NCBI GenBank assembly: GCA_034086705.1
Contig: JAXDZV010000030.1
Location: forward strand, 82,933 to 146,932
From: Eubacteriales bacterium
Lineage (GTDB): Bacteria > Bacillota > Clostridia > Oscillospirales > CAG-272
DNA length: 64,000 nucleotides
Reading direction: 5' to 3'
Shown here piece by piece: positions 6,259 through 33,540 of the stretch. How positions within the stretch are numbered: position 1 is the first letter of the stretch; every line of letters begins with the position of its first letter. The translations under genes and the position numbers were made by a program. The notes beneath the pieces are model-generated. The model made no database searches, was not told the DNA's origin, and saw only the letters and a list, made by a program, of their open reading frames with translations.

Positions 6259-6281
6259 GCCCCGGATAGAATAAGGGAGAG

Positions 6282-8576: not shown

Positions 8577-9271
8577 TTTCAACACAAAAACGTATCAGTC
8601 TTTTTTGCGGACATTACGGAAGCGGCAAAACCAACATCGCCATCAACTATGCATGTATGTTACGTGCAGCAGGGCTTGCGGTCAGCGTAGCAGATATGGA
8701 TATTGTCAATCCCTACTTCCGCACGAGCGATAGCCGTGAAATGCTCCAACGCGCCGGAATTGGGCTAGTCTGCTCCCCATATGCAGGATCAAATGTTGAT
8801 CTTGCTGCGCTTCCAAAAGAGCTATATGATTTGGTGCGTTGCCGTGACGTATATGCCGTGATGGACGTGGGCGGAGACGAACGCGGTGCGCTGGCATTGG
8901 GTCGTTATGTTCCGGAAATATTGGAAGAAGATAATTATGCAATGTACTTTGTTGTCAATTTTGCGCGCCCTTTAACACGCACCGCAGACCAGGCCTTCGA
9001 TATTCTGCGTGAAATTGAGCAAGCTGCGGGTATGCGCTGTACCGCGATTGTGCATAATACCAATCTTGCCACGCAAACTACGCCACAGACCTTGCTGCAC
9101 TACATCGATGCACTGCAACAGCTGCGCCAAAAAAGCGGCCTTCCTGTTGCCTTTTGGTCAGCTGAGCACACATTAATACCGGCCTTGGCCGATGCACTTG
9201 CGGCACATACGGACAAAGCATTATACCACGAGCTTTTTCCCCTGCATTTGCAGGCAAAAATAACGGATTGA
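8573..9271 (+). CDS. P-loop NTPase of unknown role (MinD/ParA/CooC-like size, Walker A GHYGSGKT)
   Basis: 232 aa, with an ATGA overlap onto the stop of the upstream synthetase. The Walker A motif sits near the N-terminus, and DMDIVNPYF and VMDVGGDERG are Walker B/switch-like segments. Confidence 0.7.
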   Translation: MISTQKRISLFCGHYGSGKTNIAINYACMLRAAGLAVSVADMDIVNPYFRTSDSREMLQRAGIGLVCSPYAGSNVDLAALPKELYDLVRCRDVYAVMDVGGDERGALALGRYVPEILEEDNYAMYFVVNFARPLTRTADQAFDILREIEQAAGMRCTAIVHNTNLATQTTPQTLLHYIDALQQLRQKSGLPVAFWSAEHTLIPALADALAAHTDKALYHELFPLHLQAKITD

Positions 9272-9285
9272 AAGGACGAAAAACC

Positions 9286-9492
9286 ATGGCAAAACTAACA
9301 TTTGACACCGAGCGATGCAAGGGCTGCGGGCTATGCATTCACGCCTGTCCAAAACACCTACTCGCCTTGGAAAAGAAGCACATCAACAAAAAAGGACACA
9401 CTCCCGTCTGCATGACAGATGTAACACAGTGCATTGGCTGTGCTTTCTGTGCCATTATGTGTCCCGATTGCGTCATTACCGTGGAAAAATAA
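9286..9492 (+). CDS. 2x[4Fe-4S] ferredoxin-type delta subunit of 2-oxoacid:ferredoxin oxidoreductase
   Basis: Two CxxCxxCxxxCP motifs (CKGCGLCIHACP, CIGCAFCAIMCP). Start placed at the ATG at 9286, downstream of AAAGGA; the ORF track begins at a TTG at 9268. Confidence 0.85.
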   Translation: MAKLTFDTERCKGCGLCIHACPKHLLALEKKHINKKGHTPVCMTDVTQCIGCAFCAIMCPDCVITVEK

Positions 9493-9504
9493 GGAGGGTA
9501 GAAG

Positions 9505-10584
9505 ATGAGCGAAAAAGTATTGATGAAAGGAAACGAAGCCATTGCAGAAGCTGCTATTATGGCAGGCTGCCGCCATTACTTCGGGTATCCAATTACACCA
9601 CAAACTGAAATCGCCGCATATATGGCAAAACGTATGCCGCAGATCGGCGGGTGTTTTTTACAAGCAGAGAGCGAAATTGCAGCTATCAACATGGTATACG
9701 GCGTTTCCTCAGCGGGGTATCGCGTTATGACCTCTTCTTCCAGCCCTGGGATTGCATTGAAAAGCGAAGGCCTATCCTATCTGGCCGGTGCTGACCTGCC
9801 AGCACTGGTGGTCAATGTACAGCGCGGCGGACCGGGCCTTGGAGGAATTCAGCCCTCGCAATCAGATTATTTTCAGGCAACCAAAGCCGGCGGACACGGT
9901 GATTTTCGAATGATCGTACTTGCTCCTGCTTCCGTTCAGGAAATGGCGAATTTAACTTTGTGCGGCTTTGCACTGGCAGATCAATATCGTATGACAGCAA
10001 TGATTCTCGCCGATGGTACAATGGGCCAAATGATGGAGCCGGTGAGCTTCGAGCAACCCCCTCTGCAGGAAGTGGAAAAACCCTGGGCAGTCCGTGGTAC
10101 TGAAAATATGCGTCCGCATAATATCATCAATTCTCTGTATCTGGTGCCGGAAGAGCTGGAACGAAAAAATGTGGAACGCTTTGCGCGCTATGCGGAAATT
10201 GAAAAGAAGGAAGCTCGCTGTGAAGAATACCACGTAGAAGACGCAGACATCATCGTCGTTGGGTTCGGCATTGCCGCACGTGTTGCCAAAAGCGCCGTAG
10301 ACGCGGCGCGGGCTCAGGGAATCCGCGTTGGGTTGATTCGCCCGATCACGCTTTGGCCATTTCCCAAAGAGGCGCTGTACCGTGCCGCTACACACGCTAA
10401 ACGTTTCATTTCAGTTGAGCTTTCTATGGGACAAATGGTGGAAGATATTTCACTTGCTATTCACTGCAAGGCGCCCGTGGACCTTTGCTTCCGTACGGGG
10501 GGGATGATTCCGTCTCCTGAGCAAGTTCTCAACGCCATTACAGATGCAAAAACAAAAATTGACACAGAAAGGACGCCTTGCTGA
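9505..10584 (+). CDS. vorB: 2-oxoacid:ferredoxin oxidoreductase alpha subunit (VorB-like, 3-methyl-2-oxobutanoate type)
   Basis: 359 aa. The N-terminus MKGNEAIAEAAIMAGCRHYFGYPITPQTEI is typical of the short POR/VOR/KOR alpha subunits, and the gene sits in a four-subunit operon. Confidence 0.85.
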   Translation: MSEKVLMKGNEAIAEAAIMAGCRHYFGYPITPQTEIAAYMAKRMPQIGGCFLQAESEIAAINMVYGVSSAGYRVMTSSSSPGIALKSEGLSYLAGADLPALVVNVQRGGPGLGGIQPSQSDYFQATKAGGHGDFRMIVLAPASVQEMANLTLCGFALADQYRMTAMILADGTMGQMMEPVSFEQPPLQEVEKPWAVRGTENMRPHNIINSLYLVPEELERKNVERFARYAEIEKKEARCEEYHVEDADIIVVGFGIAARVAKSAVDAARAQGIRVGLIRPITLWPFPKEALYRAATHAKRFISVELSMGQMVEDISLAIHCKAPVDLCFRTGGMIPSPEQVLNAITDAKTKIDTERTPC

Positions 10585-10600
10585 AGGCCGGAACATATGT

Positions 10601-11350
10601 ATGATCGTATTTGAAAAACCGAAGGTGTTAACCGACAAGCCGCTGCATTATTGCCCCGGCTGTACACATGGAATTGTTCATCGTCTGGTTGCGCAGGCGA
10701 TTGAAGAGCTTTCCATCGAAGGAAAAACAATTGGCGTTGTGCCGGTTGGCTGTTCTGTTATGGCATATGACTATTTCAAAACCGATATGGTAGAGGCCTC
10801 GCATGGGCGGGCGCCTGCCGTTGCAACCGGTCTGCGCCGTGCGTTACCCGACCGTGTGATTTTTACATACCAAGGCGACGGCGATCTCGCCTCCATCGGC
10901 ACTGCAGAAACAGTACATGCCGCCGCACGCAATGAGAATATCACCGTTATTTTTATTAATAACGCCATCTACGGTATGACAGGCGGCCAAATGGCTCCGA
11001 CTTCCCTTCCCGGCCAGGTAACGCAAACTTCCCCCTATGGCAGAGATGTCAAACAATGTGGTTATCCTGTGAAAATCTGCGAAATGCTGGCGCAACTGGA
11101 GGGCCCGGCTTATCTGGAGCGTGTTGCCGTTAACAACGTCAAACACGTGTTGGCAGCAAAAAAAGCGATTCGCCGTGCATTTGAAAACCAACTTGCAGGT
11201 AAAGGCTTTTCGCTGATCGAAGTGCTTTCCTCCTGCCCCACGAACTGGGGAATGACACCGGAAAAAGCCTTGGACTGGATAGAAGAAAAAATGATTCCGT
11301 ATTATCCGCTCGGCGTGTTTAAGGACAGAGACAAGGAGGCAGTTCAATGA
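10601..11350 (+). CDS. 2-oxoacid:ferredoxin oxidoreductase beta subunit (TPP-binding)
   Basis: HYCPGCTHG cluster-ligand motif and TPP motif GDGDLASIG...NNAIYGMTGGQ. Start trimmed to the ATG at 10601, after the alpha-subunit stop at 10584. Confidence 0.85.
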   Translation: MIVFEKPKVLTDKPLHYCPGCTHGIVHRLVAQAIEELSIEGKTIGVVPVGCSVMAYDYFKTDMVEASHGRAPAVATGLRRALPDRVIFTYQGDGDLASIGTAETVHAAARNENITVIFINNAIYGMTGGQMAPTSLPGQVTQTSPYGRDVKQCGYPVKICEMLAQLEGPAYLERVAVNNVKHVLAAKKAIRRAFENQLAGKGFSLIEVLSSCPTNWGMTPEKALDWIEEKMIPYYPLGVFKDRDKEAVQ

Positions 11351-11886
11351 GCACTACCAAGATTCTGATTGCCGGATTCGGTGGGCAAGGCGTACTGTTT
11401 GCCGGCAAATATCTCGCATATCAGGGATTGCTGGAAGGCAGACAGCTTTCCTGGCTCCCTTCATACGGGCCCGAAATGCGCGGCGGAACTGCAAATTGCA
11501 GTGTCATTCTTTCTGACGAACCAGTCGGCTCACCGATTGTCACAGAACCGGACGTTCTGATCGTCATGAACCTCCCCTCCTATGATAAATATGAAAGCAG
11601 TGTAGTTTCCGGCGGCCTTATCCTGCTGGACAGCTCGTTGATTGACCGACCCACCGCGCGTTCTGATGTGCGCACCGTCCGTGTACCAGCCACAGCAATG
11701 GCCCGCGAACAGGGCATTCCAACACTTGCCAATATGATCTTGCTCGGCCAGTTTTTTGCTTGCAGCGGCGCCGCTGATTTTGCCAATACCGATGCGGTAT
11801 TGAAAAAAGTAATCTCACAAAAACATATGGATCTCTTTGCGCTGAATCGCAAAGCGCTGGAGCTCGGATATCATTATCAGGCGTAA
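11347..11886 (+). CDS. 2-oxoacid:ferredoxin oxidoreductase gamma subunit
   Basis: 179 aa with an ATGA overlap onto the beta subunit. [14 protein letters not shown] is the typical gamma-subunit N-terminus. Confidence 0.85.
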
Positions 11887-11899
11887 AGGAGAAAACGAC

Positions 11900-12976
11900 A
11901 TGGAAATTCGCTATATTGCCCCCACAGAGCTTCGTGCGCATCCGGATGAAAGTGCGCTTGGCTTCGGCAAATATTTTACCGACCATATGCTCACCGTAGA
12001 GTATGATCGAGAAAATGGTTGGCACGACGCCTGCATTGCGCCATTCGGTCCAATCGCACTGCATCCGGCCTCAACCGTTCTGCATTACGGCTCTGAAGTT
12101 TTTGAAGGGTTGAAAGCTTATCGCGCGGCAGACGGTTCTGTCCGCCTATTTCGCCCCATTGAAAATGTACGACGCATGAACCAATCAGCAGAGCGCTTGG
12201 GGCTGCCACAAATGGACGAACAGGAAATGCTCTCTCTCATCCTTGAGATTGTTCGCAAAGATGAAGATTGGGTACCGCATTTACCAGGTACCTCCCTGTA
12301 CATCCGCCCGTTTTTATTTGGGAATGATGCAAATCTTGGTGTCCATTCCATTCATCGTGCCACCTTTGTCATCATTCTCTCACCGGTCGGCGCCTACTAT
12401 GCAGAGGGGATCAATCCTGTGAAAATCCGCATTGAAACAGAAGATGTCCGTGCCGTGCGCGGCGGCACCGGCTATGCAAAGTGCGGAGGAAACTATGCTG
12501 CTTCCGTGCGCGCCGGAGAAAAAGCAGAAAAAGAGGGCTTTACCCAGGTATTATGGCTGGACGGCGTTCATCGCAAGTATATTGAAGAGGTGGGCGCAAT
12601 GAACGTTATGTTTAAAATCAACGGCACCATCATCACCCCGCAGCTCACCGGATCCGTTTTGCCCGGAATCACACGAAAATCCTGTATTACGCTGTTGCAC
12701 GATTGGGGGTATTCCGTCGAAGAACGACTGCTCAGCGCCGAAGAGTTGTTTGCTGCAGCGGAAAGCGGTGCTTTGGAAGAAGCATTCGGCACTGGGACGG
12801 CTGCCGTTGTCTCTCCCATCGGTCTTTTGCGCATGAATGAACGCTCATTCACCGTCAACCACGGCAAAATTGGGCCGCTAACGCAGCGTTTATATGACAC
12901 TCTGACAGGAATCCAATGGGGTACATGCCCCGATCCGCACAATTGGATCTGCCCGCTGCGGAATACACAAGCATAA
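11900..12976 (+). CDS. ilvE: branched-chain amino acid aminotransferase (fold type IV, long form)
   Basis: 358 aa with FGKYFTDHM, YGSEVFEGLKAY, LYIRPF and GGTGYAKCGGNYAAS, which are characteristic of BCAT. Confidence 0.9.
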   Translation: MEIRYIAPTELRAHPDESALGFGKYFTDHMLTVEYDRENGWHDACIAPFGPIALHPASTVLHYGSEVFEGLKAYRAADGSVRLFRPIENVRRMNQSAERLGLPQMDEQEMLSLILEIVRKDEDWVPHLPGTSLYIRPFLFGNDANLGVHSIHRATFVIILSPVGAYYAEGINPVKIRIETEDVRAVRGGTGYAKCGGNYAASVRAGEKAEKEGFTQVLWLDGVHRKYIEEVGAMNVMFKINGTIITPQLTGSVLPGITRKSCITLLHDWGYSVEERLLSAEELFAAAESGALEEAFGTGTAAVVSPIGLLRMNERSFTVNHGKIGPLTQRLYDTLTGIQWGTCPDPHNWICPLRNTQA

Positions 12977-13121
12977 TCATTCTTCGCAAAATGGGTGATA
13001 AATAAGCAAGGCGATCTTTTTGCTTTGCGTCTTTCCCTTCACACCTTGCCCATAGCATGCTCCAACACCACATGCCAAAATTTTCAATATGCATCCTGTA
13101 TTTTCCTTTATATTACAAAGG

Positions 13122-13160
13122 GCAGGCCGATCTGCTATTAAGCAGACCGGCCTGTCTTTT
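13122..13160 (+). terminator. intrinsic terminator at the end of the ilvE operon
   Basis: GCAGGCCGATCTGC ... GCAGACCGGCCTG hairpin (one A/C mismatch) followed by TCTTTTGCTG, between convergent gene ends. Confidence 0.55.
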
Positions 13161-13199
13161 GCTGCTACATTATTTTCCTTTTTCAAAGGAATGTTGCAC

Positions 13200-15503
13200 T
13201 CAGGAGTCACTCTGCGTTTCTGCACGGAGGTGCTCCAGCATTTCTTTTGCATCTACAAGCAGCTCCCTTGCCGCCTCCGCTGATGCCGCATCCGCAATTA
13301 AACGCAGCGCAGCCCGCCGCTCCGGTCGCAACAGAACCCAACCGCTGTCCCGACGAATCCGCAATACATCCGGTATATGCCATACTTCGTCTGGATGTGA
13401 GGGGGTGTGCAATTTTCCAAGTGCCCGCATCAAAGCAGCCTTTTCTGCCACAGGCATCAAAACAGTCATACGTCGTCTGACATGCTGCGGCTGTGCCGCA
13501 CATAGCGCAGACAGCGAAGTGCCTGTCTGTGAAAGGAGTGTCACCAGTGTCGCAGCCCCAAAAATCGGGTTGGAAATCGGTAAAACAGATGCATATAATT
13601 TGCGCGCTGCAATCGACGGATCATCCGGCCCCGGACAATGCGTAAATCGCTCAACAGTAAATCCCGCCTCTTCTCCCAACGACTCGAAAAAAGCAGGCGC
13701 TGCCGCAGGCAGCCCGACACGTGTTAGCTGCCATGTTCCAGCACAATAACGCAGCAGCGTACCGGCAATTGCCCATGTGTCAAACTCTTTTCCGTTTTCA
13801 AACGCGATCAACTCTCCCCATTCGTTCAAGCACAGTTGCAAAGCGGCTTCCCGATGCGGTAGCTTTCCGTATGCCGCAAAATAGGGGCCAAGTATGGCTT
13901 TGGCTGCAACACCGGCAAAGCAGAACGGATACGTTTGTGTGGTTGTACTGAAAAAAGGCAATAGAGCACGCCGCAGCAAATATCGCACATCTGTCGATGG
14001 CAAAACCGTACACGGCTCTGCAACACTGCCCCCTTGCGAGAGCCCTTGCTCTAAAAGGCGCTCCGTTGCGCGCACAGGGTACAATCCGTTTTCATCTAAG
14101 AGTACCGCTGTACAGCGTCTGCCGTCAAACCGGATAAACAAAGTCAACGCACAGCCGTAATGCAATGCAGCAAACGAGCTTTCCGGGCGTGAGAGCACAC
14201 CGAAATCAACCGTTTTACCGCCGGCAGCCGCACATGCGGCTGCTGCCAACGACACAGTCGCTGCGCTGACAGCATGCCCGTCACTGCTGAAGCCCACCGG
14301 CCCGGGCAATCCTGCCGCTGCAAACGCAAGCGCCGCTCCGAATCGCGCACAAAACACCGTATCCGGCTTTTCCTGCGCAAAGAGTTCTATCTCACTGTGG
14401 GAAAATCGATCCTGCACAACACGAAACCCGTCAAATACCGCGTCTGTTTCTTCCTGTGTTGCAGCCGGGGCAGACATTGTCTGCGCGGCACATGTTGTCC
14501 CCGCAGGTAAGTGCAGCCCTCGCTGCAGACAAATCCCGGGGGCAACCGTCACACCGCTGCCAAGCACGCATCCGGGCGTCACAAAGGCACGTGCACCGAT
14601 CCAAGCTCCCTGCGCAATCATAGCACCCTCAACATGCGCATGCGCACCAACTGTAACACTATCCAGCAAAATACTTTGCTGCAACTGTGCCGTTGGATCC
14701 AGGCGGCAACCGTCTGAAATAATACAACCATGTTGTAAGACACCCTCCCGCGGCTGAATCCCCTCAATCTCGCCACGTGCCAGCTGAAAATTGCAGGCAA
14801 AATACGCATCCAATGTTCCGATATCACACCAGTACCCGCGCATCTCTTCGCCACGTAGCAAAATACCGTCTCGCAATGCCGCAGGAAAAATATCTTTACC
14901 AAAATCACTCGGTCTGTCTTGCGGAATGCGCGCAATAAACCGTGGTGTGAGCAAATACATACCGGTGTTGACCGTATCCGGTGCTGCACTGAAGGCGCTC
15001 GGCTTTTCGGCAAAAGCACGTATACTGCCATCCGGTGCACACAGAACAACACCAAGCGAACTGACGTCTGCTGTGTGGCTTAGGAGCAAGGTTGCCTCTG
15101 CTCCCCCCGCGCGATGCCGCGCCAATGCCGCAGAAAGGTCAAAATTGCACAGCGCGTCTGCACTGATAACCAAAACTTCCCGCTGCGAAAAATCACCTAC
15201 CGACATTAACGCCGCACGCACACCGCCTGCTGTCCCCAGAGGTGTCTGCTCGACAGCATACCGTAGACGGATCCCCTCTGCCTGCTCCCCATAATACTGA
15301 CGAATTTGCTCCGCACGATAACATAAACTGACAATCGCCTCCGTGTATCCATGCCGGGCGAGCAACCTTAAAACATGCGTCATCGCCGGCTCTGCAGCAA
15401 TTGGCACCAAAGGCTTTGGAAGTGTATCTGTCAATGGGCGAAGCCGCCTGCCTTCTCCTCCCGCCATGATGATCGGAATCGGGCGATTTATTGTTTCGTT
15501 CAT
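13200..15503 (-). CDS. sugar-phosphate nucleotidyltransferase (NTP-transferase + left-handed beta-helix) with a long PGM/PMM-like C-terminal region
   Basis: IIMAGGEGRRLRPLTDTLPKPLVPI is the nucleotidyltransferase signature and is followed by hexapeptide-like repeats. The C-terminal ~400 aa resembles a phosphohexomutase scaffold, but I see no SHNP-type active-site loop. Start set at the ATG at 15503 (AAAGGAA about 11 nt upstream); the ORF track starts at 15542. Confidence 0.6.
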   Translation of the reverse strand: MNETINRPIPIIMAGGEGRRLRPLTDTLPKPLVPIAAEPAMTHVLRLLARHGYTEAIVSLCYRAEQIRQYYGEQAEGIRLRYAVEQTPLGTAGGVRAALMSVGDFSQREVLVISADALCNFDLSAALARHRAGGAEATLLLSHTADVSSLGVVLCAPDGSIRAFAEKPSAFSAAPDTVNTGMYLLTPRFIARIPQDRPSDFGKDIFPAALRDGILLRGEEMRGYWCDIGTLDAYFACNFQLARGEIEGIQPREGVLQHGCIISDGCRLDPTAQLQQSILLDSVTVGAHAHVEGAMIAQGAWIGARAFVTPGCVLGSGVTVAPGICLQRGLHLPAGTTCAAQTMSAPAATQEETDAVFDGFRVVQDRFSHSEIELFAQEKPDTVFCARFGAALAFAAAGLPGPVGFSSDGHAVSAATVSLAAAACAAAGGKTVDFGVLSRPESSFAALHYGCALTLFIRFDGRRCTAVLLDENGLYPVRATERLLEQGLSQGGSVAEPCTVLPSTDVRYLLRRALLPFFSTTTQTYPFCFAGVAAKAILGPYFAAYGKLPHREAALQLCLNEWGELIAFENGKEFDTWAIAGTLLRYCAGTWQLTRVGLPAAAPAFFESLGEEAGFTVERFTHCPGPDDPSIAARKLYASVLPISNPIFGAATLVTLLSQTGTSLSALCAAQPQHVRRRMTVLMPVAEKAALMRALGKLHTPSHPDEVWHIPDVLRIRRDSGWVLLRPERRAALRLIADAASAEAARELLVDAKEMLEHLRAETQSDS

Positions 15504-15806: not shown

Positions 15807-17627
15807 ATGATCAGAAAAGATTTGCGGAATGTTGCAATTATCGCCCACGTCGACCATGGGAAAACCACTTTGGTAGATGAAATGCTCAAGCAGGGCGGTA
15901 TTTACCGAGAAAATCAAGCCACCGAAGAACGTGTTATGGACAGTAACGCACTGGAGCGTGAAAGAGGCATCACCATTTTGGCAAAAAATACTGCTGTCCA
16001 CTATAAAAACACAAAAATCAATATAGTTGATACACCCGGACATGCCGATTTCGGCGGCGAAGTTGAACGTATTTTAAAAATGGTCAACGGCGTTATTTTG
16101 CTGGTGGATGCAGCCGAAGGCCCCATGCCACAAACCCGCTTTGTGCTGCAAAAGGCCCTGGAACTGCAGCATCCCGTTATCGTTGTTGTCAATAAAATTG
16201 ACAGACCGGATGCCCGCTTGGATGAAGTAGGCGATGAAATTCTAGAATTGCTGTTGGAGCTCGATGCAACAGACGAGCAGTTGGACAGCCCTATGCTTTG
16301 GTGCTCCGGTAGAGCCGGCACTGCATCGTACTCTCCCTATGAAGCCGGAACAGACCTCACGCCGTTGTTTGACACCATTTTAAAACACATTCCCGCCCCT
16401 TGCGGTGATGAAACAGCCCCGTTACAAATGCTTGTTTCCTCCATTGACTATAACGACTATGTTGGGCGCATCGGCATCGGCAGAATCGACCGTGGTGTAC
16501 TACAGCAAAATGCCGATGTCGTCATTACAAACTACCACAACCCGCAAACCGTTCGGCGCACAAAGGTCGTCAGTCTGTATCAAATCGACGGGCTTAAGCG
16601 CGTTCCTGTGGAAAACGCTATGGTGGGAGATATTGTTTGCTTTTCCGGCTGTGAGGACATTACGATCGGAGATACTCTTTGCGCTCCGGAAAAACCGGAT
16701 CCACTGGAATTTGTCAAAGTGAGCGAACCAACATTAGAGATGACATTCTCTGTCAATGATAGCCCTTTTGCAGGTCGAGAAGGAAAGTTTGTCACGTCTC
16801 GGCAACTGCGTGATCGCCTGTACCGCGAGCTGTTGAAAGATGTCTCTCTGCGCGTCAGCGATGGAGACACTACAGACAGCTTCAAGGTATGCGGCAGAGG
16901 CGAAATGCACTTGTCAATTTTGATAGAAACGATGCGCCGCGAAGGCTATGAAATGGCGGTCAGCACACCACGCGTGATAATGAAACAAATCGACGGCGCT
17001 ACCTGCGAGCCGATGGAGCATGTATACATCGATGTACCGGAAGAATCTGTGGGCGCCGTGATGGAAAAAATGGGGGCACGCAAAGGAGAACTGCTCGAAA
17101 TGGGCCTACACGGTTCTCGCATGCGTATCGAATATTCCATACCGGCTCGTTGCTTGTTCGGATATCGCAGCGAATTTTTAACGGATACAAAAGGCGAGGG
17201 AATTCTGAATTCCGTATTCGATGGCTATCAGCCCTTTAAAGGTGAGATCGCGCGCCGCTATACCGGTTCTTTGATTGCCTCCGAAACCGGTGAATCTACC
17301 TCCTACGGTGTTTTCAACGCGCAGGACCGCGGCAGCATGTTTATCTCAAACCAATGCCCTGTATATGAGGGAATGATCGTTGGGGAATGCCCTAAGATGG
17401 TGGACATTGCCGTGAATGTGTGCAAACAAAAGCATTTAACCGCCATTCGGTCCTCCGGTGCTGATGAAGCACTTCGTTTGGTTACACCGAAAACCCTATC
17501 CTTGGAAGAAGCCATTGAATTCATTGCAGACGACGAGCTGATTGAAGTTACGCCGAAAAATATCCGCTTACGTAAGCGCATTCTCAATACCGCATTACGT
17601 CTCAAAGCACAAAATAAAAAAGCGTAA
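15807..17627 (+). CDS. typA: translational GTPase TypA/BipA
   Basis: 606 aa with AIIAHVDHGKTTLVD, DTPGHADFGGEVER and NKIDR G-motifs, and EF-G-like domains. Confidence 0.95.
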   Translation: MIRKDLRNVAIIAHVDHGKTTLVDEMLKQGGIYRENQATEERVMDSNALERERGITILAKNTAVHYKNTKINIVDTPGHADFGGEVERILKMVNGVILLVDAAEGPMPQTRFVLQKALELQHPVIVVVNKIDRPDARLDEVGDEILELLLELDATDEQLDSPMLWCSGRAGTASYSPYEAGTDLTPLFDTILKHIPAPCGDETAPLQMLVSSIDYNDYVGRIGIGRIDRGVLQQNADVVITNYHNPQTVRRTKVVSLYQIDGLKRVPVENAMVGDIVCFSGCEDITIGDTLCAPEKPDPLEFVKVSEPTLEMTFSVNDSPFAGREGKFVTSRQLRDRLYRELLKDVSLRVSDGDTTDSFKVCGRGEMHLSILIETMRREGYEMAVSTPRVIMKQIDGATCEPMEHVYIDVPEESVGAVMEKMGARKGELLEMGLHGSRMRIEYSIPARCLFGYRSEFLTDTKGEGILNSVFDGYQPFKGEIARRYTGSLIASETGESTSYGVFNAQDRGSMFISNQCPVYEGMIVGECPKMVDIAVNVCKQKHLTAIRSSGADEALRLVTPKTLSLEEAIEFIADDELIEVTPKNIRLRKRILNTALRLKAQNKKA

Positions 17628-17683
17628 GAGAATCATATTTGTCAGTTGCGTGACGGTATGCCTGTTTTTTCACAGCAAAAGGC

Positions 17684-17712
17684 TTGACAAAAAAAGCGTG
17701 CTCTGCTACAAT
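17684..17712 (+). promoter_or_regulatory. sigma-70-type promoter of T-box unit 3
   Basis: TTGACA at 17684-17689, a 17-nt spacer, then TACAAT at 17707-17712. Confidence 0.6.
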
Positions 17713-17718
17713 GTATGC

Positions 17719-18007
17719 ATAAAATCAATAAACAAATGCGCAGATGGAATTACGTGTTTCCACAAACATGCTCCAGAGAGGCAGCGGTAGGTGCGAGCTG
17801 CAGCATGGGGGAGAAACGGTCTCATTCCGGAGCAGGATCTCGGAAGGGCGCTACGGTAAGTGTTGCCATAGTATGAGATCCCGGAGGCCCCGTTACCATG
17901 GCTGTAGGATTGAAAGATCCTGAATAAGTGACCGTCTATGGACGGTAAGCAGGGTGGTACCGCGAATTTGTTTCGTCCCTGAGGTCTTTGACCTCAGGGA
18001 CTTTTTT
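17719..18007 (+). promoter_or_regulatory. T-box leader 3 (specifier CUC, Leu) with terminator
   Basis: AGAGAG bulge, distal loop GGTAGGTGCGA, and specifier context GAAACGGU-CUC-A-UUCC-GGAGCA pairing with a 5' GGAA. The T-box sequence AGGGTGGTACCGCG lies at 17951-17964. The terminator GTCCCTGAGGT/ACCTCAGGGAC plus TTTTTT lies at 17975-18007. Confidence 0.85.
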
Positions 18008-18037
18008 GATTACAAAAGAAAAATAAGGAGTAAAGAA

Positions 18038-19444
18038 ATGAAAAACATGCAGATATGCCAGATACAGGATGAAACGCTGTGTTGCCAGCAGCAGACACAA
18101 AAGGCCCTTTCTTTCCGTGCCCGTATGGAAATTATCGGAAAACTGATTGCTGCCGGCGTGAATCTTATTGCATTGCCGATACCTGAAAATGAAAAAGCAG
18201 ATGCCCTTTTGTTAGATACGGTGGCACCGCTTGGCGAAAATGTTTGTTATGTCATTTCCGTTTCCTCCGTAGCACAAGCCCAACGCGCAGCTGCCGTGCT
18301 TATGCACGCAGCCCACGCCCGGCTATGTGTAGAACTTCCTCTTTCTGCCATCGGTATGGAGTATTCTTTACACAAAAAAGAAAAAGACATGATCGGTTTT
18401 GTCACAGATTTAATCTCTTCCTGCCGTACTCTGTGCAATCAAGTCAGCTTTTGCGCCGCAGACGCCTTTCGGGCAGATGTTACTTTTCTGAAAAGTGCTG
18501 TACAGGCTGCCGTATCTGCAGGTGCTGATACTGTAATTCTCAAAGACAATGCCGGGATCGCTCTGCCGTGGACAACGCAAACGCTCTTCCAATCTGTTGC
18601 TCAGCAGTTGCCCGCATCTGTCTGTCTCGGCGCCGCTTTTTCAAATACTGCTTTCATGGCTTGCGCCAACAGCGCGTGTGCTGTCCGCAGCGGCGCTGTG
18701 ATACTGCTCAGCGCCATTGGCAGCAATACCTTACCGGATACTGCAGCGCTTGGGTACACTATGCAGAGTCTTTCGCATACAGAAAAATATACAACTGCTC
18801 TCGTTACAACAGAGCTTTCTCGCCTGTGCGATGCGGTGCGCGCACAGCTTTGCGGGGTAGAACGTACCACGCAGCAACAACGTACCCCCGAACAGTTTCG
18901 TTTGACCAAAGATGCCAGCGCCACAGAAGTCGCACAGGCAGCTCGCACGCTCGGATATGATCTTTGCGCAGAAGACGCCGATCGCCTGTATGAAGCATTT
19001 CGCCGCGTTTCGGAGAAAAAAACGGTTGACAGCCGCGAACTGGACGCATTGATCGCATCGGAAACAATGCAGGTGCGTCCCACCTATACATTGGAGAAAT
19101 ATCTTGTAAACGCAGGCAACGTGATGACTCCGGCCGCGCAAATCACATTGCGTCGCGGCGAAGACCGGTTACAGGGAATTTCGATGGGAGACGGCCCGAT
19201 TGATGCAGCATTTCTAACCATTGAACAAATAATTGGATGCCATTTCGAATTAGATGCATTCGAAATTCAAGCGGTAACGGAGGGCCGCGGCGCAATGGGG
19301 TCCGCCGTTGTCAGACTCCGGGCAGATGGAAAACTATATAGCGGTATGGGCAGTTCAACGGACATCATCGGCGCATCTATCCGCGCTTACTTAAACGCCA
19401 TCAACAAAATCGTGTATGATGAAATGCAGTCACAAACACTCTAA
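18038..19444 (+). CDS. 2-isopropylmalate synthase (LeuA)-like protein with degenerate active site and intact LeuA-dimer/regulatory C-terminal domain
   Basis: Start at the ATG at 18038 (RBS AAGGAG), because the ORF-track start lies in the T-box terminator. The N-terminal motif reads DETLCCQQQ where LeuA/CimA have DTTLRDGEQ. The HxH metal site is replaced by AAFSNTAF. The C-terminus GDGPIDAAF...AVTEGRGAMGSAVVRLRADGKLYSGMGSSTDIIGASIRAYLNAINK matches the LeuA allosteric domain. Confidence 0.75.
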   Translation: MKNMQICQIQDETLCCQQQTQKALSFRARMEIIGKLIAAGVNLIALPIPENEKADALLLDTVAPLGENVCYVISVSSVAQAQRAAAVLMHAAHARLCVELPLSAIGMEYSLHKKEKDMIGFVTDLISSCRTLCNQVSFCAADAFRADVTFLKSAVQAAVSAGADTVILKDNAGIALPWTTQTLFQSVAQQLPASVCLGAAFSNTAFMACANSACAVRSGAVILLSAIGSNTLPDTAALGYTMQSLSHTEKYTTALVTTELSRLCDAVRAQLCGVERTTQQQRTPEQFRLTKDASATEVAQAARTLGYDLCAEDADRLYEAFRRVSEKKTVDSRELDALIASETMQVRPTYTLEKYLVNAGNVMTPAAQITLRRGEDRLQGISMGDGPIDAAFLTIEQIIGCHFELDAFEIQAVTEGRGAMGSAVVRLRADGKLYSGMGSSTDIIGASIRAYLNAINKIVYDEMQSQTL

Positions 19445-19467
19445 AGATACAGAAAGGAGCACTCACC

Positions 19468-21969
19468 ATGAAATTATGCTTTTCTACCAAAGGGTGGCAC
19501 GGCGTGCTTTGGCAAGATTTTGTGAAAACGGCACACGCACTTGGCTTTTCCGGTATTGAGTTGCACAATTTGCACGACCCGGTATTCGCACGTACCGGTT
19601 CGCCGCGAGATCCGTATGCTGCAGGACAAATCAAACACGATTTGTTTTGTAAAGGCTTGGAAATTCCCTGTATCGATTCCATTACAGATTTGTTAGACGA
19701 TACATCTGCCGAAGAAAAATGTGAAGAAATCAGTGTTTGTTTGCGCACTGCCGCAGATCTTTCTGTTCCGTATGTACGTGTGCGTGCATACGATCATCCC
19801 GGCGCCCCACAGGCACAAGATGATACAGTGCTTTATCTGTTGCAACGGTTGCTGCCCGTAGCACAAGCAGCAAATTGCGAGCTATTGCTTGAAACAGCGG
19901 GGCCGTATGCAGACACGGCACGCCTGCGTCGTTTACTCGATCGACTCGCTTGCGACGGCATCGGTGTGCTATGGGACCTATATGCACCATGCATGGAAAA
20001 AGCAGAACCCCCGCAGCAAACTGTCACCAACCTCGGCGCATTTGTACGCCATGTGCACATCCGCGATTTTGCTCCGGAAAGCGGTACTTTTTGCCTCATG
20101 GGAGAAGGCGCCGTGCCCACACAGACACTGATCGGAGCATTGGAAAGCATCAACTACGCCGGCCATATTTGCTTTGAGTGGGACCCCACCTGGCTGCCGG
20201 AAGCAGCAGACATGCATTTGGTCTTTGCTCACTTTCGCAGTTATATGAGCCGTTACGAAAAAAAAGCTGTACAAGAAATTTACTATAACAAGTTGCACAC
20301 CGGCCGTAGAATTTGGCCCAAAGAGGTTTTAATCCGCGAAACATTTCCACAGGTTTTGGATCGCGTAGCAGAAGAGTTCCCAGACCAAATTGCTTTTAAA
20401 TATACAACTTTGGATTATACGCGCACCTATGCACAATTTCGGCGAGATGTGGATACGTTTGCGCGCGCGCTGGTTGCGTTGGGTGTTAAAAGCGGCACAA
20501 AAGTCGCCGTTTGGGCAACCAATGTTCCGGCATGGTACATTGCATTTTGGGCAACTGTCAAAATCGGTGCAGTGTTGGTTACTGTAAACACTGCATATAA
20601 AATCCACGAAGCAGAATACTTGTTGCGCCAATCTGATACACACACACTGATTTTGGTTGAACGCTGCCAAGACTCTGATTATGCGGAAATTATCCGTACC
20701 CTTTGTCCTGAACTTATCGGCAAACCAGCGCGTGATGTTTTGCATGCCGAGCGTCTTCCTTTTTTACGCCGCATCATCACCGTTGGATTTCAGATGGAAG
20801 GCTGCCTGCGCTTTGAGGATGCGATGGCATTGGCAGATTCTGTTTCCGAAGAACGGATTCGCCGCCTTGCAGCTGCTGTTCAACCGGAGGACGTATGCAA
20901 TATGCAATATACCTCCGGCACAACCGGATTTCCAAAAGGTGTCATGCTCACCCATCACGGTGTCGTAAACAACGGAAAATGTATCGGAGACCGCATGGAT
21001 CTTTCCACCGCTGATCGGATGCTGATTCAGGTACCTATGTTCCACTGTTTTGGTATGGTACTGGCAATGACTGCCGCTATGACACACGGCGCAACGCTAT
21101 GTCCTCTACCTTATTTCTCTGCTAAAAATTCACTTGCTTGCATCAACGCAGAGCATATCACAGTCTTTCACGGCGTTCCGACGATGTTCATCGCTATGTT
21201 CAATCACCCAGATTACAAAAAAACAGATTTTTCGTATATGCGCACCGGAATTATGGCCGGATCGGGCTGTCCTGCAGATTTGATGCGTCGCGCAGCACAG
21301 CCGGATGAAATGAATATGCGGGGCATTGTTTCCGTATACGGTCAGACCGAGGCTGCACCGGGTTGTACCATGAGTGAGCTGGACGACCCATTGGATGAGC
21401 GCTGCGAAACAGTCGGGCATGCTTTGCCGCACGTTGAATGTCGCATCATCGATCCCCAAACGGGCGCAGAATGCGCCGTCGGGGAAAACGGCGAATTTGT
21501 TGCACGCGGATATAATGTGATGAAAGGATATTACAAAATGCCGGATGCTACTGCCGCTGCGATTGATGCAGATGGCTGGTTGCATACGGGAGACCTTGCT
21601 TGTAAAACCCCACAGGGGAACTATAAAATCACCGGCAGGCTGAAAGACATGATTATCCGCGGCGGCGAAAACATTTATCCCAAAGAGATCGAAGAATTTA
21701 TATATACCTGTCCTAAAGTACGTGATGTGCAGGTGGTTGGCGTAAGCGATCGGCAATACGGAGAAGAGATCTGTGCTTGTGTGATTCTCAAAAAAGGAGA
21801 ACAAATGACACAAGAAGAATTGCAAAGTTTTGTGCGCAGCCATATGGCACGGCATAAGGTGCCACGGTATGTCGATTTCATGGACACCTTCCCCATGAAT
21901 GCAGCGGGGAAAATTCTAAAATATAAATTGCGCGAACAGGCAGAACAGCGTCATTGCCAAAATGACTAA
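19468..21969 (+). CDS. xylose-isomerase-like TIM-barrel domain fused to AMP-dependent acyl-CoA synthetase
   Basis: 833 aa. The first ~265 aa look like a sugar-phosphate isomerase/epimerase (AP-endonuclease-2 type) barrel (GFSGIELH..., LLLETAG, FEWDP). The remainder is an ANL enzyme with YTSGTTGFPKGVMLTH, YGQTEA, LHTGDL and GGENIYPKEIE. Confidence 0.85.
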   Translation: MKLCFSTKGWHGVLWQDFVKTAHALGFSGIELHNLHDPVFARTGSPRDPYAAGQIKHDLFCKGLEIPCIDSITDLLDDTSAEEKCEEISVCLRTAADLSVPYVRVRAYDHPGAPQAQDDTVLYLLQRLLPVAQAANCELLLETAGPYADTARLRRLLDRLACDGIGVLWDLYAPCMEKAEPPQQTVTNLGAFVRHVHIRDFAPESGTFCLMGEGAVPTQTLIGALESINYAGHICFEWDPTWLPEAADMHLVFAHFRSYMSRYEKKAVQEIYYNKLHTGRRIWPKEVLIRETFPQVLDRVAEEFPDQIAFKYTTLDYTRTYAQFRRDVDTFARALVALGVKSGTKVAVWATNVPAWYIAFWATVKIGAVLVTVNTAYKIHEAEYLLRQSDTHTLILVERCQDSDYAEIIRTLCPELIGKPARDVLHAERLPFLRRIITVGFQMEGCLRFEDAMALADSVSEERIRRLAAAVQPEDVCNMQYTSGTTGFPKGVMLTHHGVVNNGKCIGDRMDLSTADRMLIQVPMFHCFGMVLAMTAAMTHGATLCPLPYFSAKNSLACINAEHITVFHGVPTMFIAMFNHPDYKKTDFSYMRTGIMAGSGCPADLMRRAAQPDEMNMRGIVSVYGQTEAAPGCTMSELDDPLDERCETVGHALPHVECRIIDPQTGAECAVGENGEFVARGYNVMKGYYKMPDATAAAIDADGWLHTGDLACKTPQGNYKITGRLKDMIIRGGENIYPKEIEEFIYTCPKVRDVQVVGVSDRQYGEEICACVILKKGEQMTQEELQSFVRSHMARHKVPRYVDFMDTFPMNAAGKILKYKLREQAEQRHCQND

Positions 21970-22044
21970 TTGGTAAACTTTCCGCTCCTTTGTTGCATCC
22001 TGTCGAATTATGTGATATGATGATGGTAACAGGGCATAGGGAGC

Positions 22045-22929
22045 GTGCGCATGACAAGATATAACATTTTAAATCTTGCCGCCGGTCAAGGACTTGCCGG
22101 TAAGGAAAAAACCCCCCAAGGCATTGATTATTATACAAAATGCATCGGAGATGCACGGCTGTATGTAAAAGACCGCTGTTTGGCACATGCGGATGATCTT
22201 TGCTTTTGTGTGTATGGCGGAGACGGCACTATCAATGAAGTTGTCAGCGGGATTTTAGACGCAAATGCAGCAGATCGTGCCAGCGTTGGTGTCGTCCCGT
22301 ACGGTACGGGGAATGATTTTGCAAGAATTTTACAGCATATGCAGCAAGGGGATTCCTTGTGGTCCGATGTGATCCACTGGAATGATGCTTATGCCGTCAA
22401 TATGTTGAACATCGGCTTTGACTGTAGTGTAGTTGAAAAAACTGCACACATGAAAACGCTGCCGCTGATCAGCGGAAGTTTTGCATATATTTTAGGGGTC
22501 GCCGATGTACTGTTTCACAAAATCTCCCGCTCTCTGTACATCCGCTATACAGATGCAAATGGGAAGCAAGGCAGTTATGACGGGCAGGTGCTACTATGTG
22601 CCGTAGCCAATGCACCGTATTGCGGCGGCGGCTTTTGTGCTGCGCCGGTCGCGCAATATGATGATGGTCTTTTAGATCTCATGATTATCCGAAAGGTTTC
22701 GCGCGCACGGTTTTTGTCGTTGGTTTCCGCATATCGCAGCGGTACCCACGTCAATTCCGATGGCGATGTAACTCGACGCTTTGCAGACATTATTTCCTAT
22801 CACCGTTGTAAGTCCATCCGCATAGAAGGCATGGAACATGTCTGCGCAGACGGTGAAATATTTCCATGTACTGCAGCCGACATTGGCGTTTTTCCGCATG
22901 CCATACGCTTCTTGCGTGTGCATGCATAG
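22045..22929 (+). CDS. diacylglycerol/lipid kinase family protein (YegS/BmrU-like)
   Basis: 294 aa with the GGDGTINEV motif and GTGNDFAR. Confidence 0.75.
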   Translation: MRMTRYNILNLAAGQGLAGKEKTPQGIDYYTKCIGDARLYVKDRCLAHADDLCFCVYGGDGTINEVVSGILDANAADRASVGVVPYGTGNDFARILQHMQQGDSLWSDVIHWNDAYAVNMLNIGFDCSVVEKTAHMKTLPLISGSFAYILGVADVLFHKISRSLYIRYTDANGKQGSYDGQVLLCAVANAPYCGGGFCAAPVAQYDDGLLDLMIIRKVSRARFLSLVSAYRSGTHVNSDGDVTRRFADIISYHRCKSIRIEGMEHVCADGEIFPCTAADIGVFPHAIRFLRVHA

Positions 22930-22957
22930 ATTTGCAACAAATATAGGAGGAAATAGA

Positions 22958-23830
22958 ATGAATCGATTTAAAATTGGTGTAATGGCAGACTGGTTAGGCG
23001 GCACGTTCCGTCAAAACATCGAGACAACCGCAGCCATGGGCGCACAAGGCGTGCAACTATATGCAACAGGAGAATTCAGCGATTTCACACCGGACACCGT
23101 AAAAGGAGAGCGTCTGCGAGAAACAAAACGAATTCTTGCCGCAAACGGGATCGAAGTTAGCGCCTTGTGCGGCGACCTCGGCGGGCACGGATTTCAAATC
23201 CCGAAGGACAATGTTTGGAAAATTGAAAAATCCAAGCGCATCATCGATCTGGCGCTGGAGCTTGGTGCAAACGTTGTAACCACGCATATCGGTGTTGTCC
23301 CTGACACGGTTAATGACACTTATCAAATTATGCAACAGGCTTGTAATGAGCTGGCTGAATATGCCCAAAGCGTCGGTGCATATTTTGCCGTAGAAACCGG
23401 GCCGGAGAAAGCCGCCATGCTCAAGGAGTTTTTAGACAGCCTTTCTGCCCGCGGCGTGCGTGTAAACTTTGACCCCGCCAATTTGGTAATGGTAACGCAA
23501 GACGATCCGGTTGCTGCTGTACCGCTCCTGGGGGATTACATTGTCCATACCCATGCCAAAGACGGTGTAAACCTCAAGCCCTGCGATCGACATGCGATTT
23601 ACAATAGCTTTGCTGAGGGCGGCGTAGACGGTTTTTCCGCAGGTGATTATATGAAAGAGCTCCCCCTCGGACAAGGCAATGTAGACTTTCCCGCCTATAT
23701 TGCAGCACTTGCTGCAATCGATTACCGTGGGTATCTCACCGTTGAGCGTGAGGTACGCGAAGACCCTCGGGCTGACATCGAAATGGCAGTCGGCTTTCTG
23801 AAAGAACTAACCGCATCTTATCAAATCTGA
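22958..23830 (+). CDS. sugar phosphate isomerase/epimerase (xylose-isomerase-like TIM barrel)
   Basis: Start at the ATG at 22958 after RBS AGGAGG. VVTTHIG, FAVETG, NFDPANL, HAKD and TVERE are typical barrel metal-site segments. Confidence 0.75.
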   Translation: MNRFKIGVMADWLGGTFRQNIETTAAMGAQGVQLYATGEFSDFTPDTVKGERLRETKRILAANGIEVSALCGDLGGHGFQIPKDNVWKIEKSKRIIDLALELGANVVTTHIGVVPDTVNDTYQIMQQACNELAEYAQSVGAYFAVETGPEKAAMLKEFLDSLSARGVRVNFDPANLVMVTQDDPVAAVPLLGDYIVHTHAKDGVNLKPCDRHAIYNSFAEGGVDGFSAGDYMKELPLGQGNVDFPAYIAALAAIDYRGYLTVEREVREDPRADIEMAVGFLKELTASYQI

Positions 23831-32024: not shown

Positions 32025-33239
32025 CTACTGCAACACAACTTTCTTGAAATTCTTCTTACCACGACGCAAAACAACACCCTCTTGCAGCGCCACGGATGAA
32101 AAAGACGCATGGATATCCGCAATTTTTTCTCCGTCCGCACTGACACCCCCCTGTTCCACCGCACGCCGTGCCTCCGAACGCGATGCACAAAGGCCCGCGG
32201 CACAAAGCAACGTCAAAATATCTGCCTGATTATTTGTAAGAATGTCCGTGCCAATAAAAATTTGGGGAGCATCTGCACCGCCACTGAAAACGGAACGTGC
32301 TGCCGCACGTGCCTGCTCTGCCTGTGCCGTTCCATGTACCAAAGCAGTAAGCTCATATGCCAGAATTTCTTTTTTCTCATTGATACGGGTGTCCGGCCAA
32401 TTTTCCATTTGTGCAATGTCCGAAAGCGGCAAAAACGTCAGCATGCGCAAGCATTTCATCACATCTGTATCTGCAACATTGCGCCAATACTGATAAAACT
32501 CAAACGGTGTGGTTTTTTTCGGGTCAAGCCATACCGCCCCCTTTTGCGTTTTGCCCATTTTTTTACCCTCTGAATTCAGCAGAAGCGTGATCGTCATCGC
32601 GTGTGCATCTTTGCCAAGCTTACGGCGTATGAGCTCCGTGCCGCCAAGCATATTGCTCCATTGATCGTCACCGCCAAATTGCAGATTACAGCCGTATTTT
32701 TCATACAGTTCCAGAAAATCATAGCTCTGCATCAGCATATAATTAAATTCCAAGAAAGACAGCCCTTTTTCCAAACGCTGTTTATAGCATTCCGCACGTA
32801 GCATCTGATTCACAGAGAAACATGCTCCCACTTCGCGTAAAAAGGCAACATAATTCAGCTGCATCAGCCAGTCTGCGTTGTTCACAAGCAACGCTTTTCC
32901 TTCGGAAAAATCAATAAATCTGCTCATCTGTTCCCTAAAGCAGGCAACGTTATGTGCAATGTTCTCAACCGTCAGCATAGAACGCATATCGGTCCGTCCG
33001 GAAGGATCTCCCACCATAGCGGTACCGCCGCCGAGCAAAGCAATCGGGCGGTTGCCCGCCATTTGTAGCCGCTTCATCAGGCAAAGTGCCATAAAATGTC
33101 CAACATGCAGACTGTCTGCCGTCGGGTCAAATCCGATATAAAACACCGCACGCCCCGTATTGATCAATTCTGCAACTTTTTCTTCATTGGTAACTTGCGC
33201 AATCAAGCCGCGCGCTTTCAGCTCTTCGTATACTGTCAT
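32025..33239 (-). CDS. tyrS: tyrosine--tRNA ligase
   Basis: 404 aa from the ATG at 33239 (RBS AGGAAGGAA). It has a HIGH-type motif (DSLHVGH), KMGKT (KMSKS variant) and a C-terminal S4-like domain. The upstream part of the track ORF is the T-box leader. Confidence 0.95.
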   Translation of the reverse strand: MTVYEELKARGLIAQVTNEEKVAELINTGRAVFYIGFDPTADSLHVGHFMALCLMKRLQMAGNRPIALLGGGTAMVGDPSGRTDMRSMLTVENIAHNVACFREQMSRFIDFSEGKALLVNNADWLMQLNYVAFLREVGACFSVNQMLRAECYKQRLEKGLSFLEFNYMLMQSYDFLELYEKYGCNLQFGGDDQWSNMLGGTELIRRKLGKDAHAMTITLLLNSEGKKMGKTQKGAVWLDPKKTTPFEFYQYWRNVADTDVMKCLRMLTFLPLSDIAQMENWPDTRINEKKEILAYELTALVHGTAQAEQARAAARSVFSGGADAPQIFIGTDILTNNQADILTLLCAAGLCASRSEARRAVEQGGVSADGEKIADIHASFSSVALQEGVVLRRGKKNFKKVVLQ

Positions 33240-33290
33240 TGTTCCGTTCCTTCCTAACAAAACTTTTATTGAAGAATTTTTTCTCCCGAT

Positions 33291-33535: not shown

Positions 33536-33540
33536 TTTAC

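Follow-up and report, generated by a model that had tools for sequence, protein, structure and literature searches.

The locus analyzed here lies on contig JAXDZV010000030.1 of an Eubacteriales genome (assembly GCA_034086705.1), in a window of 64,000 nucleotides (the whole stretch of DNA that was analyzed, positions 82,933 to 146,932 of the forward strand of the contig; coordinates below are positions in this window unless a different locus is named), and consists of a promoter, a T-box leader RNA with a leucine specifier, a strong intrinsic terminator and two plus-strand genes that encode a LeuA-like pseudoenzyme, denoted pLeuA, and a fusion of a TIM barrel with an acyl-CoA synthetase, denoted TIM::ACS. 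All these elements, including the spacing of only 23 nt between the two genes, were recovered where a preliminary description of this DNA had placed them. The promoter (17684–17712, plus strand) is of the sigma-70 type (TTGACA-17-(TG)TACAAT), with 11 of 12 matches and an extended −10 TG, and is the top-scoring match within 17600–22300. The leader (17732–17983, plus strand) comprises Stem I, the Stem II/IIA-B region, Stem III and the antiterminator, and scores 109.2 bits against the Rfam T-box model RF00230 (gathering score 93, E = 3.2 × 10−23), over model positions 1–219 of 219, so that the scoring proposed in the preliminary description identifies a complete T-box. The antiterminator helix (17951–17980, plus strand; model positions 187–216) contains the conserved T-box sequence GGGUGGUACCGCG at 17952–17964, and its alignment to RF00230 reads AGGGUGGUACCGCG...CCCU, with the UGGN bulge present; the UGGU of the leader would pair with the 3' end of the tRNA, ACCA. 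The terminator (17975–18007, plus strand) has a 12-bp stem (17975–18001) with 8 G-C pairs, a 3-nt loop and a T6 tract, and its 5' arm is the 3' arm of the antiterminator (GUCCCUG), such that the two structures are mutually exclusive; folding of the terminator region yielded a minimum free energy of −36.4 kcal/mol (z = −4.45).

The leader is an unexceptional representative of a known class of RNA. It resembles the Leu-specific T-boxes of leuS and ilv-leu in Firmicutes in having a full Stem I with a specifier loop in which CUC is followed by a purine, the T-box sequence in the antiterminator bulge and a competing intrinsic terminator, but differs from them in its targets, which are a pseudo-LeuA and a TIM::CoA-ligase fusion rather than an aminoacyl-tRNA synthetase, the canonical leu pathway or a transporter. 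The S-turn positions of the specifier loop (17746–17824) deviate from the T-box consensus AGUA and GAA, reading ACGU and GGU in the window; in many relatives, these positions read UUAU with AAGU. No tRNA genes were found within the 64,000-nt window.

The specifier codon is CUC (Leu; 17821–17823, plus strand), followed by the purine A17824 and then directly by the closing helix UUCC. On its 3' side, the specifier loop thus reads GGU-CUC-A-UUCC, and in the Rfam alignment UUCC pairs with GGAA; in T-boxes, the specifier codon is, as a rule, followed by a purine just ahead of the helix. The CUC-A reading given in the preliminary description was borne out by comparison with relatives. A Stem I covariance model built here and run over 84 related loci detected 61 T-box leaders directly upstream of pLeuA, and the codon in the canonical register was CUC in 58 of these and CUG in the remaining 3, that is, Leu in every case; a purine followed the specifier in 58 of the 61. 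The dinucleotide ahead of the codon varies (GU, GC, UU or AU), so that the alternative registers considered, GUC and UCU, hold no single amino acid and were ruled out. In the other 23 of the 84 loci, all from Clostridia, no T-box was found directly upstream of pLeuA. T-box-less loci include L030, L040, L053, L056, L058, L060–L065, L070, L072–L074 and L079; the leader of L056 is simply AT-rich and promoter-like, and several T-box-less loci have the order pLeuA, TIM::ACS, IlvE, CbiA-like protein, 2-oxoisovalerate:ferredoxin oxidoreductase (VOR), helix-turn-helix (HTH)-cupin ligase.

The first gene (18038–19444, plus strand; ATG at 18038, ribosome-binding site AAGGAG at 18025–18030) encodes pLeuA, a protein of 468 aa that combines a degenerate HMGL-like TIM barrel with an intact LeuA_dimer domain (Pfam scores 72.8 and 100.2 bits, respectively). 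It does not reach the cut-off of the top-scoring NCBIfam LeuA equivalog (211.5 bits vs. 532), and the HCS_D2 Pfam domain has no match in it, unlike in the intact neighboring synthases. pLeuA was aligned to the solved LeuA structures and to the intact LeuA/CimA-family enzymes encoded beside its homologs. Where LeuA has DTTLRDGEQ, pLeuA has DETLCCQQQ; where LeuA has HxHNDxG, it has AFSNTAF (AAFSNTAF), whereby the HxH metal ligands are gone; KDNAG stands in place of PDTLG; and a segment of approximately 35 residues that includes the catalytic HADGD motif (FTQSAGVHADGD) is deleted. The same losses occur throughout the family, in which C/S-x stands in for RDGEQ, unless the motif is deleted, C/S-x-N takes the place of HxH and the HADGD subdomain is missing. 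The designation of this protein as a LeuA-like pseudoenzyme thus applies to the window protein and to its family alike. Judging from these residues, pLeuA is evidently a catalytically dead paralog of LeuA that cannot be a DRE-TIM synthase.

The overall fold (TIM barrel, linker and C-terminal regulatory domain) is common to pLeuA and the LeuA/CimA enzymes, whereas pLeuA is about 50 aa shorter and lacks the catalytic motifs. Its AlphaFold model has a mean predicted local distance difference test (pLDDT) score of 90.8, and the top Foldseek matches of the model are full-length LeuA of M. tuberculosis, the leucine-bound form included. Conservation is concentrated in the regulatory domain, where 51% of the positions are at least 90% conserved across the family, compared to 24% in the barrel, and where the GDGP[IV]DAAF motif is invariant. 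The barrel keeps many invariant residues as well (MEY, K114 and D142-A-x-R). When the regulatory domain was compared to the Protein Data Bank by sequence, no matches were obtained, and a profile search returned truncated catalytic domains only.

The second gene (19468–21969, plus strand; ATG at 19468, preceded by AAAGGAG within the 23-nt gap) encodes the 833-aa fusion, and its domain content agrees with that given in the preliminary description. The N-terminal part (approximately residues 1–260; 19468–20250, plus strand) is a xylose-isomerase-like TIM barrel, which matches AP_endonuc_2 (PF01261) at residues 20–240 with 70.9 bits (gathering score 31.1). The rest (20251–21969, plus strand) is a complete acyl-CoA synthetase domain of the ANL superfamily, which we propose to be an isovalerate-CoA ligase; it matches AMP-binding at residues 298–689 (298 bits) and AMP-binding_C (65 bits). 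All core motifs of the ligase are present, namely A3 (TSGTTGxPKG; here YTSGTTGFPKG), A5 (YGxTE), A8 (GRxKDxIxxGGxN) and the A10 Lys, as is the motif YTSGTTGFPKGVMLTH quoted in the preliminary description. The closest NCBIfam family is PRK12583/NF009233, 'fatty acid CoA ligase family', which covers the ligase over its full length and shares all ANL core motifs with it, at 647.8 bits vs. a cut-off of 832; ordinary members of this family are without the N-terminal TIM barrel. No close solved structure was found for the ligase domain. The A5 motif reads YGQTE, i.e. Gly rather than Trp precedes QTE; in acetyl-CoA synthetases, this position is occupied by the Trp that closes the pocket. The motifs indicate that the ligase is intact, and the Gly-QTE pocket argues against restriction to acetate. 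The closest unfused relative of the ligase (P0121; 57% identity) is a singleton from a contig of 3.3 kb whose context is uninformative.

The model of the TIM domain (pLDDT 93) resembles, at a template modeling score of about 0.7 and 14–20% sequence identity, ketose 3-epimerases, UlaE, AsbF and Art22 in Foldseek, and the domain carries HxHxxD and GEG motifs. The fold is common to these xylose-isomerase-like barrels; the TIM domain of the fusion differs in that the metal-binding tetrad is not family-wide, in being fused to a CoA ligase and in having no sugar-metabolism context. The window protein has the full EDHE tetrad (E142/D170/H195/E237), but among 70 members of the family EDHE was found in only 32, ENHV in 26, and KDHE in a subgroup of 826–837 aa. 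Because the tetrad varies among subgroups, a conserved metal-dependent reaction of the TIM domain appears unlikely, and an adaptor or scaffold seems, from these patterns, more plausible than a conserved catalyst.

A scan that sampled one genome per species put the number of species-level genomes with a pLeuA relative at no fewer than 572. The best 80 of these all come from metagenome-assembled genomes (MAGs) of gut or rumen Clostridia (Acutalibacteraceae, Oscillospiraceae, Ruminococcaceae, Christensenellaceae and Monoglobales), and the window pLeuA is divergent, with at most 44% identity to any of them. TIM::ACS directly follows pLeuA in 69 of the 69 loci with enough downstream sequence, and the distance between the stop codon of pLeuA and the start codon of the fusion has a median of 2 nt and falls mostly between −5 and +5 nt. 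Such short distances suggest that the two genes are translationally coupled and that their products form a stoichiometric complex. Across the family, identity is 70–75% in the ligase domain, 36–45% in the TIM domain and 38–44% in pLeuA. In 43 of 63 loci, the pair is followed by an Amidohydro_2 gene, which neither the window nor any Bacteroidales-type locus contains; its product (e.g. 10888–11697 of L001) is a protein of about 269 aa with no NCBIfam match, for which the closest structure is the uncharacterized BB4693 (3irs) and which is distantly similar to ACMSD/LigW.

Two more CoA ligases of the window are preceded by T-boxes, as the preliminary description had proposed. A T-box with the Ile specifier AUC (3310–3541, plus strand) lies ahead of a gene (3512/3602–5875) that encodes HTH_3 and cupin domains joined to an MbcS-like CoA ligase, and a T-box with the Val specifier GUA (5975–6229, plus strand) lies ahead of a paralogous gene of the same architecture (6282–8576). 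When the same Stem I model was applied to the leaders of these paralogs among the relatives, AUC was found in 15 leaders of one paralog and GUA or GUC in 25 leaders of the other, sets that include the window leaders at 3310 and 5975. Together with the CUC leader at 17732, the pattern of three ligases with three specifiers is conserved among relatives. The fusion ligase belongs to a different ANL subgroup from the HTH-cupin ligases, in line with the preliminary description: it is 27% identical to them and PRK12583-like, MbcS not being among its top families, whereas the HTH-cupin pair is closest to MbcS (403.6 bits for the HTH-cupin paralog scored against family NF047394, short of the equivalog cut-off of 850).

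Downstream of the Ile and Val T-boxes, on the plus strand at 9268–12976, lie the genes for a ferredoxin-like delta subunit (9268–9492), the alpha, beta and gamma subunits of a VOR-type 2-oxoacid:ferredoxin oxidoreductase (OFOR; 9505–11886) and the aminotransferase IlvE (11900–12976); VOR and IlvE (9505–12976) would perform carboxylation and transamination, respectively. In the window and in its relatives, the VOR subunits are always preceded by the ferredoxin-like open reading frame (ORF; 74 aa, 2x[4Fe-4S]) and by a CbiA/ParA-like P-loop gene (8573–9271 in the window), which has no NCBIfam match and whose product might serve the OFOR in Fe-S maturation or as an Fe-S carrier.

In Clostridia, the pLeuA–TIM::ACS pair usually adjoins one or more HTH-cupin ligases, the CbiA-like protein, the ferredoxin, VOR alpha/beta/gamma and IlvE, in various orders and orientations; within 10 kb of the pair in 28 fully flanked loci, VOR was found in 20, IlvE in 19 and HTH-cupin ligases in 20. 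In L080, a CUC T-box (5317–5424 of that locus) heads the entire CbiA-VOR-IlvE-pLeuA operon, and in L066, a CUC T-box (2571–2685) precedes the HTH-cupin ligase that heads a VOR-IlvE-pLeuA operon. These placements imply that the common OFOR can come under Leu control. The most compact version of the pathway is seen in L090 and L091, in which one Leu (CUG) T-box is followed by pLeuA, TIM::ACS, IlvE and a single-chain, pyruvate:ferredoxin oxidoreductase (PFOR)-type OFOR, such that a single Leu switch spans the ligase, the carboxylating enzyme and the transaminase (in L090, T-box at 5997–6270 and genes at 6300–14784; OFOR of 1164 aa). Thus, a CoA ligase, an OFOR and a branched-chain aminotransferase are co-located under the control of the cognate amino acid.

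Five loci from Bacteroidales MAGs (L086–L088, L092 and L093) carry the module without any T-box, these Bacteroidales being devoid of T-boxes. L086 and L087 carry pLeuA, TIM::ACS and OFOR; in L092, these genes are preceded by that of a CimA-like synthase; and L088 has the order leuC, leuD, CimA-like synthase, hydrolase, pLeuA, TIM::ACS, OFOR, leuB, ilvE. Because an intact synthase co-occurs in the same operon, pLeuA is not a replacement for LeuA. The OFOR adjacent to the module is 70–75% identical between the phyla (Bacteroidales vs. the T-box-bearing L090), which suggests that the whole module has moved between phyla by horizontal transfer.

From the leader, its specifier and the conserved gene neighborhood, we consider it probable that the operon is switched on by uncharged tRNA-Leu and that the ligase, together with an OFOR and IlvE, converts isovalerate to leucine, with pLeuA as a sensor subunit; what we infer within this scheme is the identity of the substrate, which way the flux runs and what pLeuA and the TIM barrel do. 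Given that a T-box induces expression on shortage of the cognate charged tRNA, the products of the operon should raise the supply of leucine. Under this scheme, uncharged tRNA-Leu (anticodon GAG) would pair with the CUC specifier in Stem I while base-pairing between its free 3' end and the UGGU bulge stabilizes the antiterminator, and RNA polymerase would pass the terminator (17975–18001) into the two co-transcribed genes. The CoA-ligase domain of the fusion would then convert isovalerate and ATP to isovaleryl-CoA, an OFOR would reductively carboxylate isovaleryl-CoA to 4-methyl-2-oxopentanoate (ketoisocaproate), and IlvE would transaminate ketoisocaproate to leucine. The carboxylating enzyme would be VOR (9505–11886) in the window, and a dedicated single-chain PFOR-type enzyme encoded beside the pair in other lineages. 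Since the OFOR adds one carbon, a route to ketoisocaproate needs isovaleryl-CoA, and hence the C5 acid isovalerate. pLeuA would bind the fusion as a leucine-sensing subunit and exert feedback on the ATP-consuming first step. The suggestion that this unit forms a third arm of branched-chain amino acid (BCAA) salvage is supported by the synteny with VOR, IlvE and the HTH-cupin ligases in Clostridia and with OFOR, and sometimes IlvE and leuBCD, in Bacteroidales.

The recruitment of a separate ligase subfamily for leucine is accounted for by the properties of MbcS, the methylbutyryl-CoA synthetase of Staphylococcus aureus, an ATP-dependent ligase that scavenges branched short-chain acids: its selectivity is for isobutyrate and 2-methylbutyrate, and isovalerate is a poor substrate, with a KM above 500 uM (PMC10026030). 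The HTH-cupin paralogs of the window, the ligases of the Val and Ile arms, are MbcS-like, whereas the proposed Leu-arm ligase belongs to the PRK12583-like subfamily, and MbcS feeds lipid synthesis, in contrast to the amino-acid context seen here. Branched 2-oxoacids are substrates of PFOR-superfamily enzymes in gut Clostridia (10.1101/401489), and the reverse route, from branched short-chain fatty acids (SCFAs) to BCAAs, has been called unproven (PMC7709123).

Several observations weigh against the isovalerate-to-leucine route. In the window, the pair is separated by 4.7 kb from VOR-IlvE, which is itself behind the Ile and Val T-boxes, so that a shortage of Leu alone might leave the carboxylation and transamination steps uninduced; the two genes in between, identified by eye from the ORF translations as those for a nucleotidyltransferase/mutase-like protein and a 606-aa BipA/TypA-like GTPase, are unrelated. 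The module-adjacent OFOR of the Bacteroidales loci and of L090 passes the cut-off of the NCBIfam pyruvate:ferredoxin oxidoreductase equivalog (1625 bits vs. 911), and the intact synthase beside pLeuA is CimA-like, which points to an operon context of BCAA synthesis in general rather than of Leu alone. The ligase falls below the PRK12583 cut-off, and its putative substrate is not fixed by any characterized close relative. With its complete EDHE tetrad, the window TIM domain could be catalytic here, and the frequent Amidohydro_2 partner is without a role in the simple pathway.

The last two points lead to an alternative under which pLeuA, the TIM barrel or both, possibly with the Amidohydro_2 protein, catalyze an undescribed reaction, the ligase acting on a different leucine precursor acid. 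We regard this as unlikely, even though a plain ligase has no need of extra domains and the many invariant residues of the pLeuA barrel, along with the intact tetrad of the window protein and the recurrence of the Amidohydro_2 gene, would find an explanation. The tetrad is disrupted (ENHV/KDHE) in more than half of the family, pLeuA is without any of the DRE-TIM substrate or metal ligands, and the Amidohydro_2 protein is dispensable, given its absence from the window and from every Bacteroidales-type locus; uniform conservation of catalytic machinery is seen in the ligase alone.

A lipid role appears quite unlikely as well. Under it, the isovaleryl-CoA made by the module would chiefly prime the synthesis of iso-odd branched-chain fatty acids for membrane lipids, in the manner of MbcS in S. 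aureus, and would not go into leucine. Isovaleryl-CoA is the product of the ligase in both models, MbcS-type scavenging of branched acids for primers is established (PMC10026030), and the loss of the leucine-derived primer on leucine scarcity would explain a Leu T-box. However, the genes with which the module is associated, those of OFOR and IlvE and, in L088, leuCD and leuB as well, serve to make amino acids rather than lipids, and no fab genes were seen in the 94 loci. T-boxes, moreover, characteristically govern the supply of aminoacyl-tRNA.

We find it very unlikely that acetate or some other small acid is the substrate of the ligase, which with the adjacent PFOR would feed acetyl-CoA and pyruvate to a LeuA/CimA condensation. 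The PFOR-like score of the OFOR in Bacteroidales and L090 would fit such a role, as would the use of acetyl-CoA by the intact neighboring synthase, but the Gly of YGQTE stands where acetyl-CoA synthetases carry Trp, the top family match is to fatty-acid CoA ligases rather than Acs, the partner OFOR in Clostridia is of the four-subunit VOR type and sits with IlvE, and acetyl-CoA supply is an improbable target for a Leu-specific T-box. Operation in the catabolic direction, from leucine via ketoisocaproate and isovaleryl-CoA to isovalerate, is scarcely credible: OFOR and IlvE are reversible, and PorA-type enzymes yield branched SCFAs in C. sporogenes (10.1101/401489), but a T-box that induces on leucine starvation is the opposite of catabolic logic, and AMP-forming ligases are effectively irreversible and not used for acid release.

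Within the isovalerate-to-leucine route, the least certain parts are the roles of pLeuA and of the TIM barrel. For pLeuA, three features suggest a leucine-sensing subunit of the ligase: the conserved, putatively leucine-binding domain, a pairing with the fusion that is obligate and tightly coupled, and the occurrence of HTH-cupin modules in the other two ligases. In the de novo route, genuine LeuA is likewise subject to feedback inhibition at the first step. As a tentative extension, for which we would claim appreciably less than even confidence, pLeuA might have been reused as a detachable leucine sensor that sits on the TIM barrel of the fusion and imposes leucine feedback on an isovalerate-CoA ligase, and the module might in addition account genetically for the conversion of isovalerate to leucine by carboxylation in gut and rumen anaerobes, for which genes have long been missing, and might have passed horizontally between Firmicutes and Bacteroidales. 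If so, the salvage route would match the two layers of control of the de novo route, RNA attenuation and allosteric inhibition, and in the pseudo-LeuA one may have a clear example of how an allosteric domain outlived its own enzyme to regulate another.

The carboxylation of isoacids to BCAAs by rumen and gut anaerobes has been known since the 1960s, and isoacids are in use as ruminant feed additives. Allison and co-workers reportedly established, from the 1960s to 1984, that such anaerobes carboxylate isovalerate, isobutyrate and 2-methylbutyrate to the respective BCAAs. The pathway proposed here shares the logic of that reductive carboxylation and of the VOR/PorA-type OFORs (acid to acyl-CoA to 2-oxoacid to amino acid), and the gut and rumen habitat is common to the relatives of the module; the earlier work was physiological, and in the literature searched, no genes are named for the activation step or for the leucine arm as a whole. 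A cultured host that would link the module to Allison's strains was not found among the named matches, all of which are MAGs. The kind of pathway is thus already known, and what is new are the components of the module, a pseudo-LeuA and a TIM::CoA-ligase fusion coupled to OFOR and IlvE. The literature searched, on isovalerate carboxylation, T-boxes associated with acyl-CoA synthetases, pseudoenzymes of isopropylmalate synthase and YngI, yielded no description of a pLeuA/TIM::ACS system, and these components, along with their T-box control, appear to be undescribed.

The result is a concrete, testable set of genes (pLeuA, TIM::ACS, OFOR and IlvE) that recurs across two phyla, in which the T-box specifiers label the pairing of ligase and amino acid: CUC for Leu, GUA for Val and AUC for Ile. 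In public records, the module proteins are called 'hypothetical protein', 'AMP-binding protein' or '2-isopropylmalate synthase'; because of such missing or wrong names, metabolic reconstructions of gut MAGs may misjudge leucine auxotrophy.

No terminator was detected after the fusion gene, and read-through is possible. Downstream lie a gene for a DagK/YegS-like lipid kinase (22045–22929, plus strand) and then one for a standalone xylose-isomerase-like TIM barrel (22838–23830, plus strand); the latter, considered as a relative of the TIM domain of the fusion, is probably unrelated, with 23% identity to that domain and a canonical E-D-H-E tetrad. A fourth T-box (33312–33538, minus strand; 103.3 bits) is located upstream of tyrS, the gene for tyrosyl-tRNA synthetase (32025–33500, minus strand).

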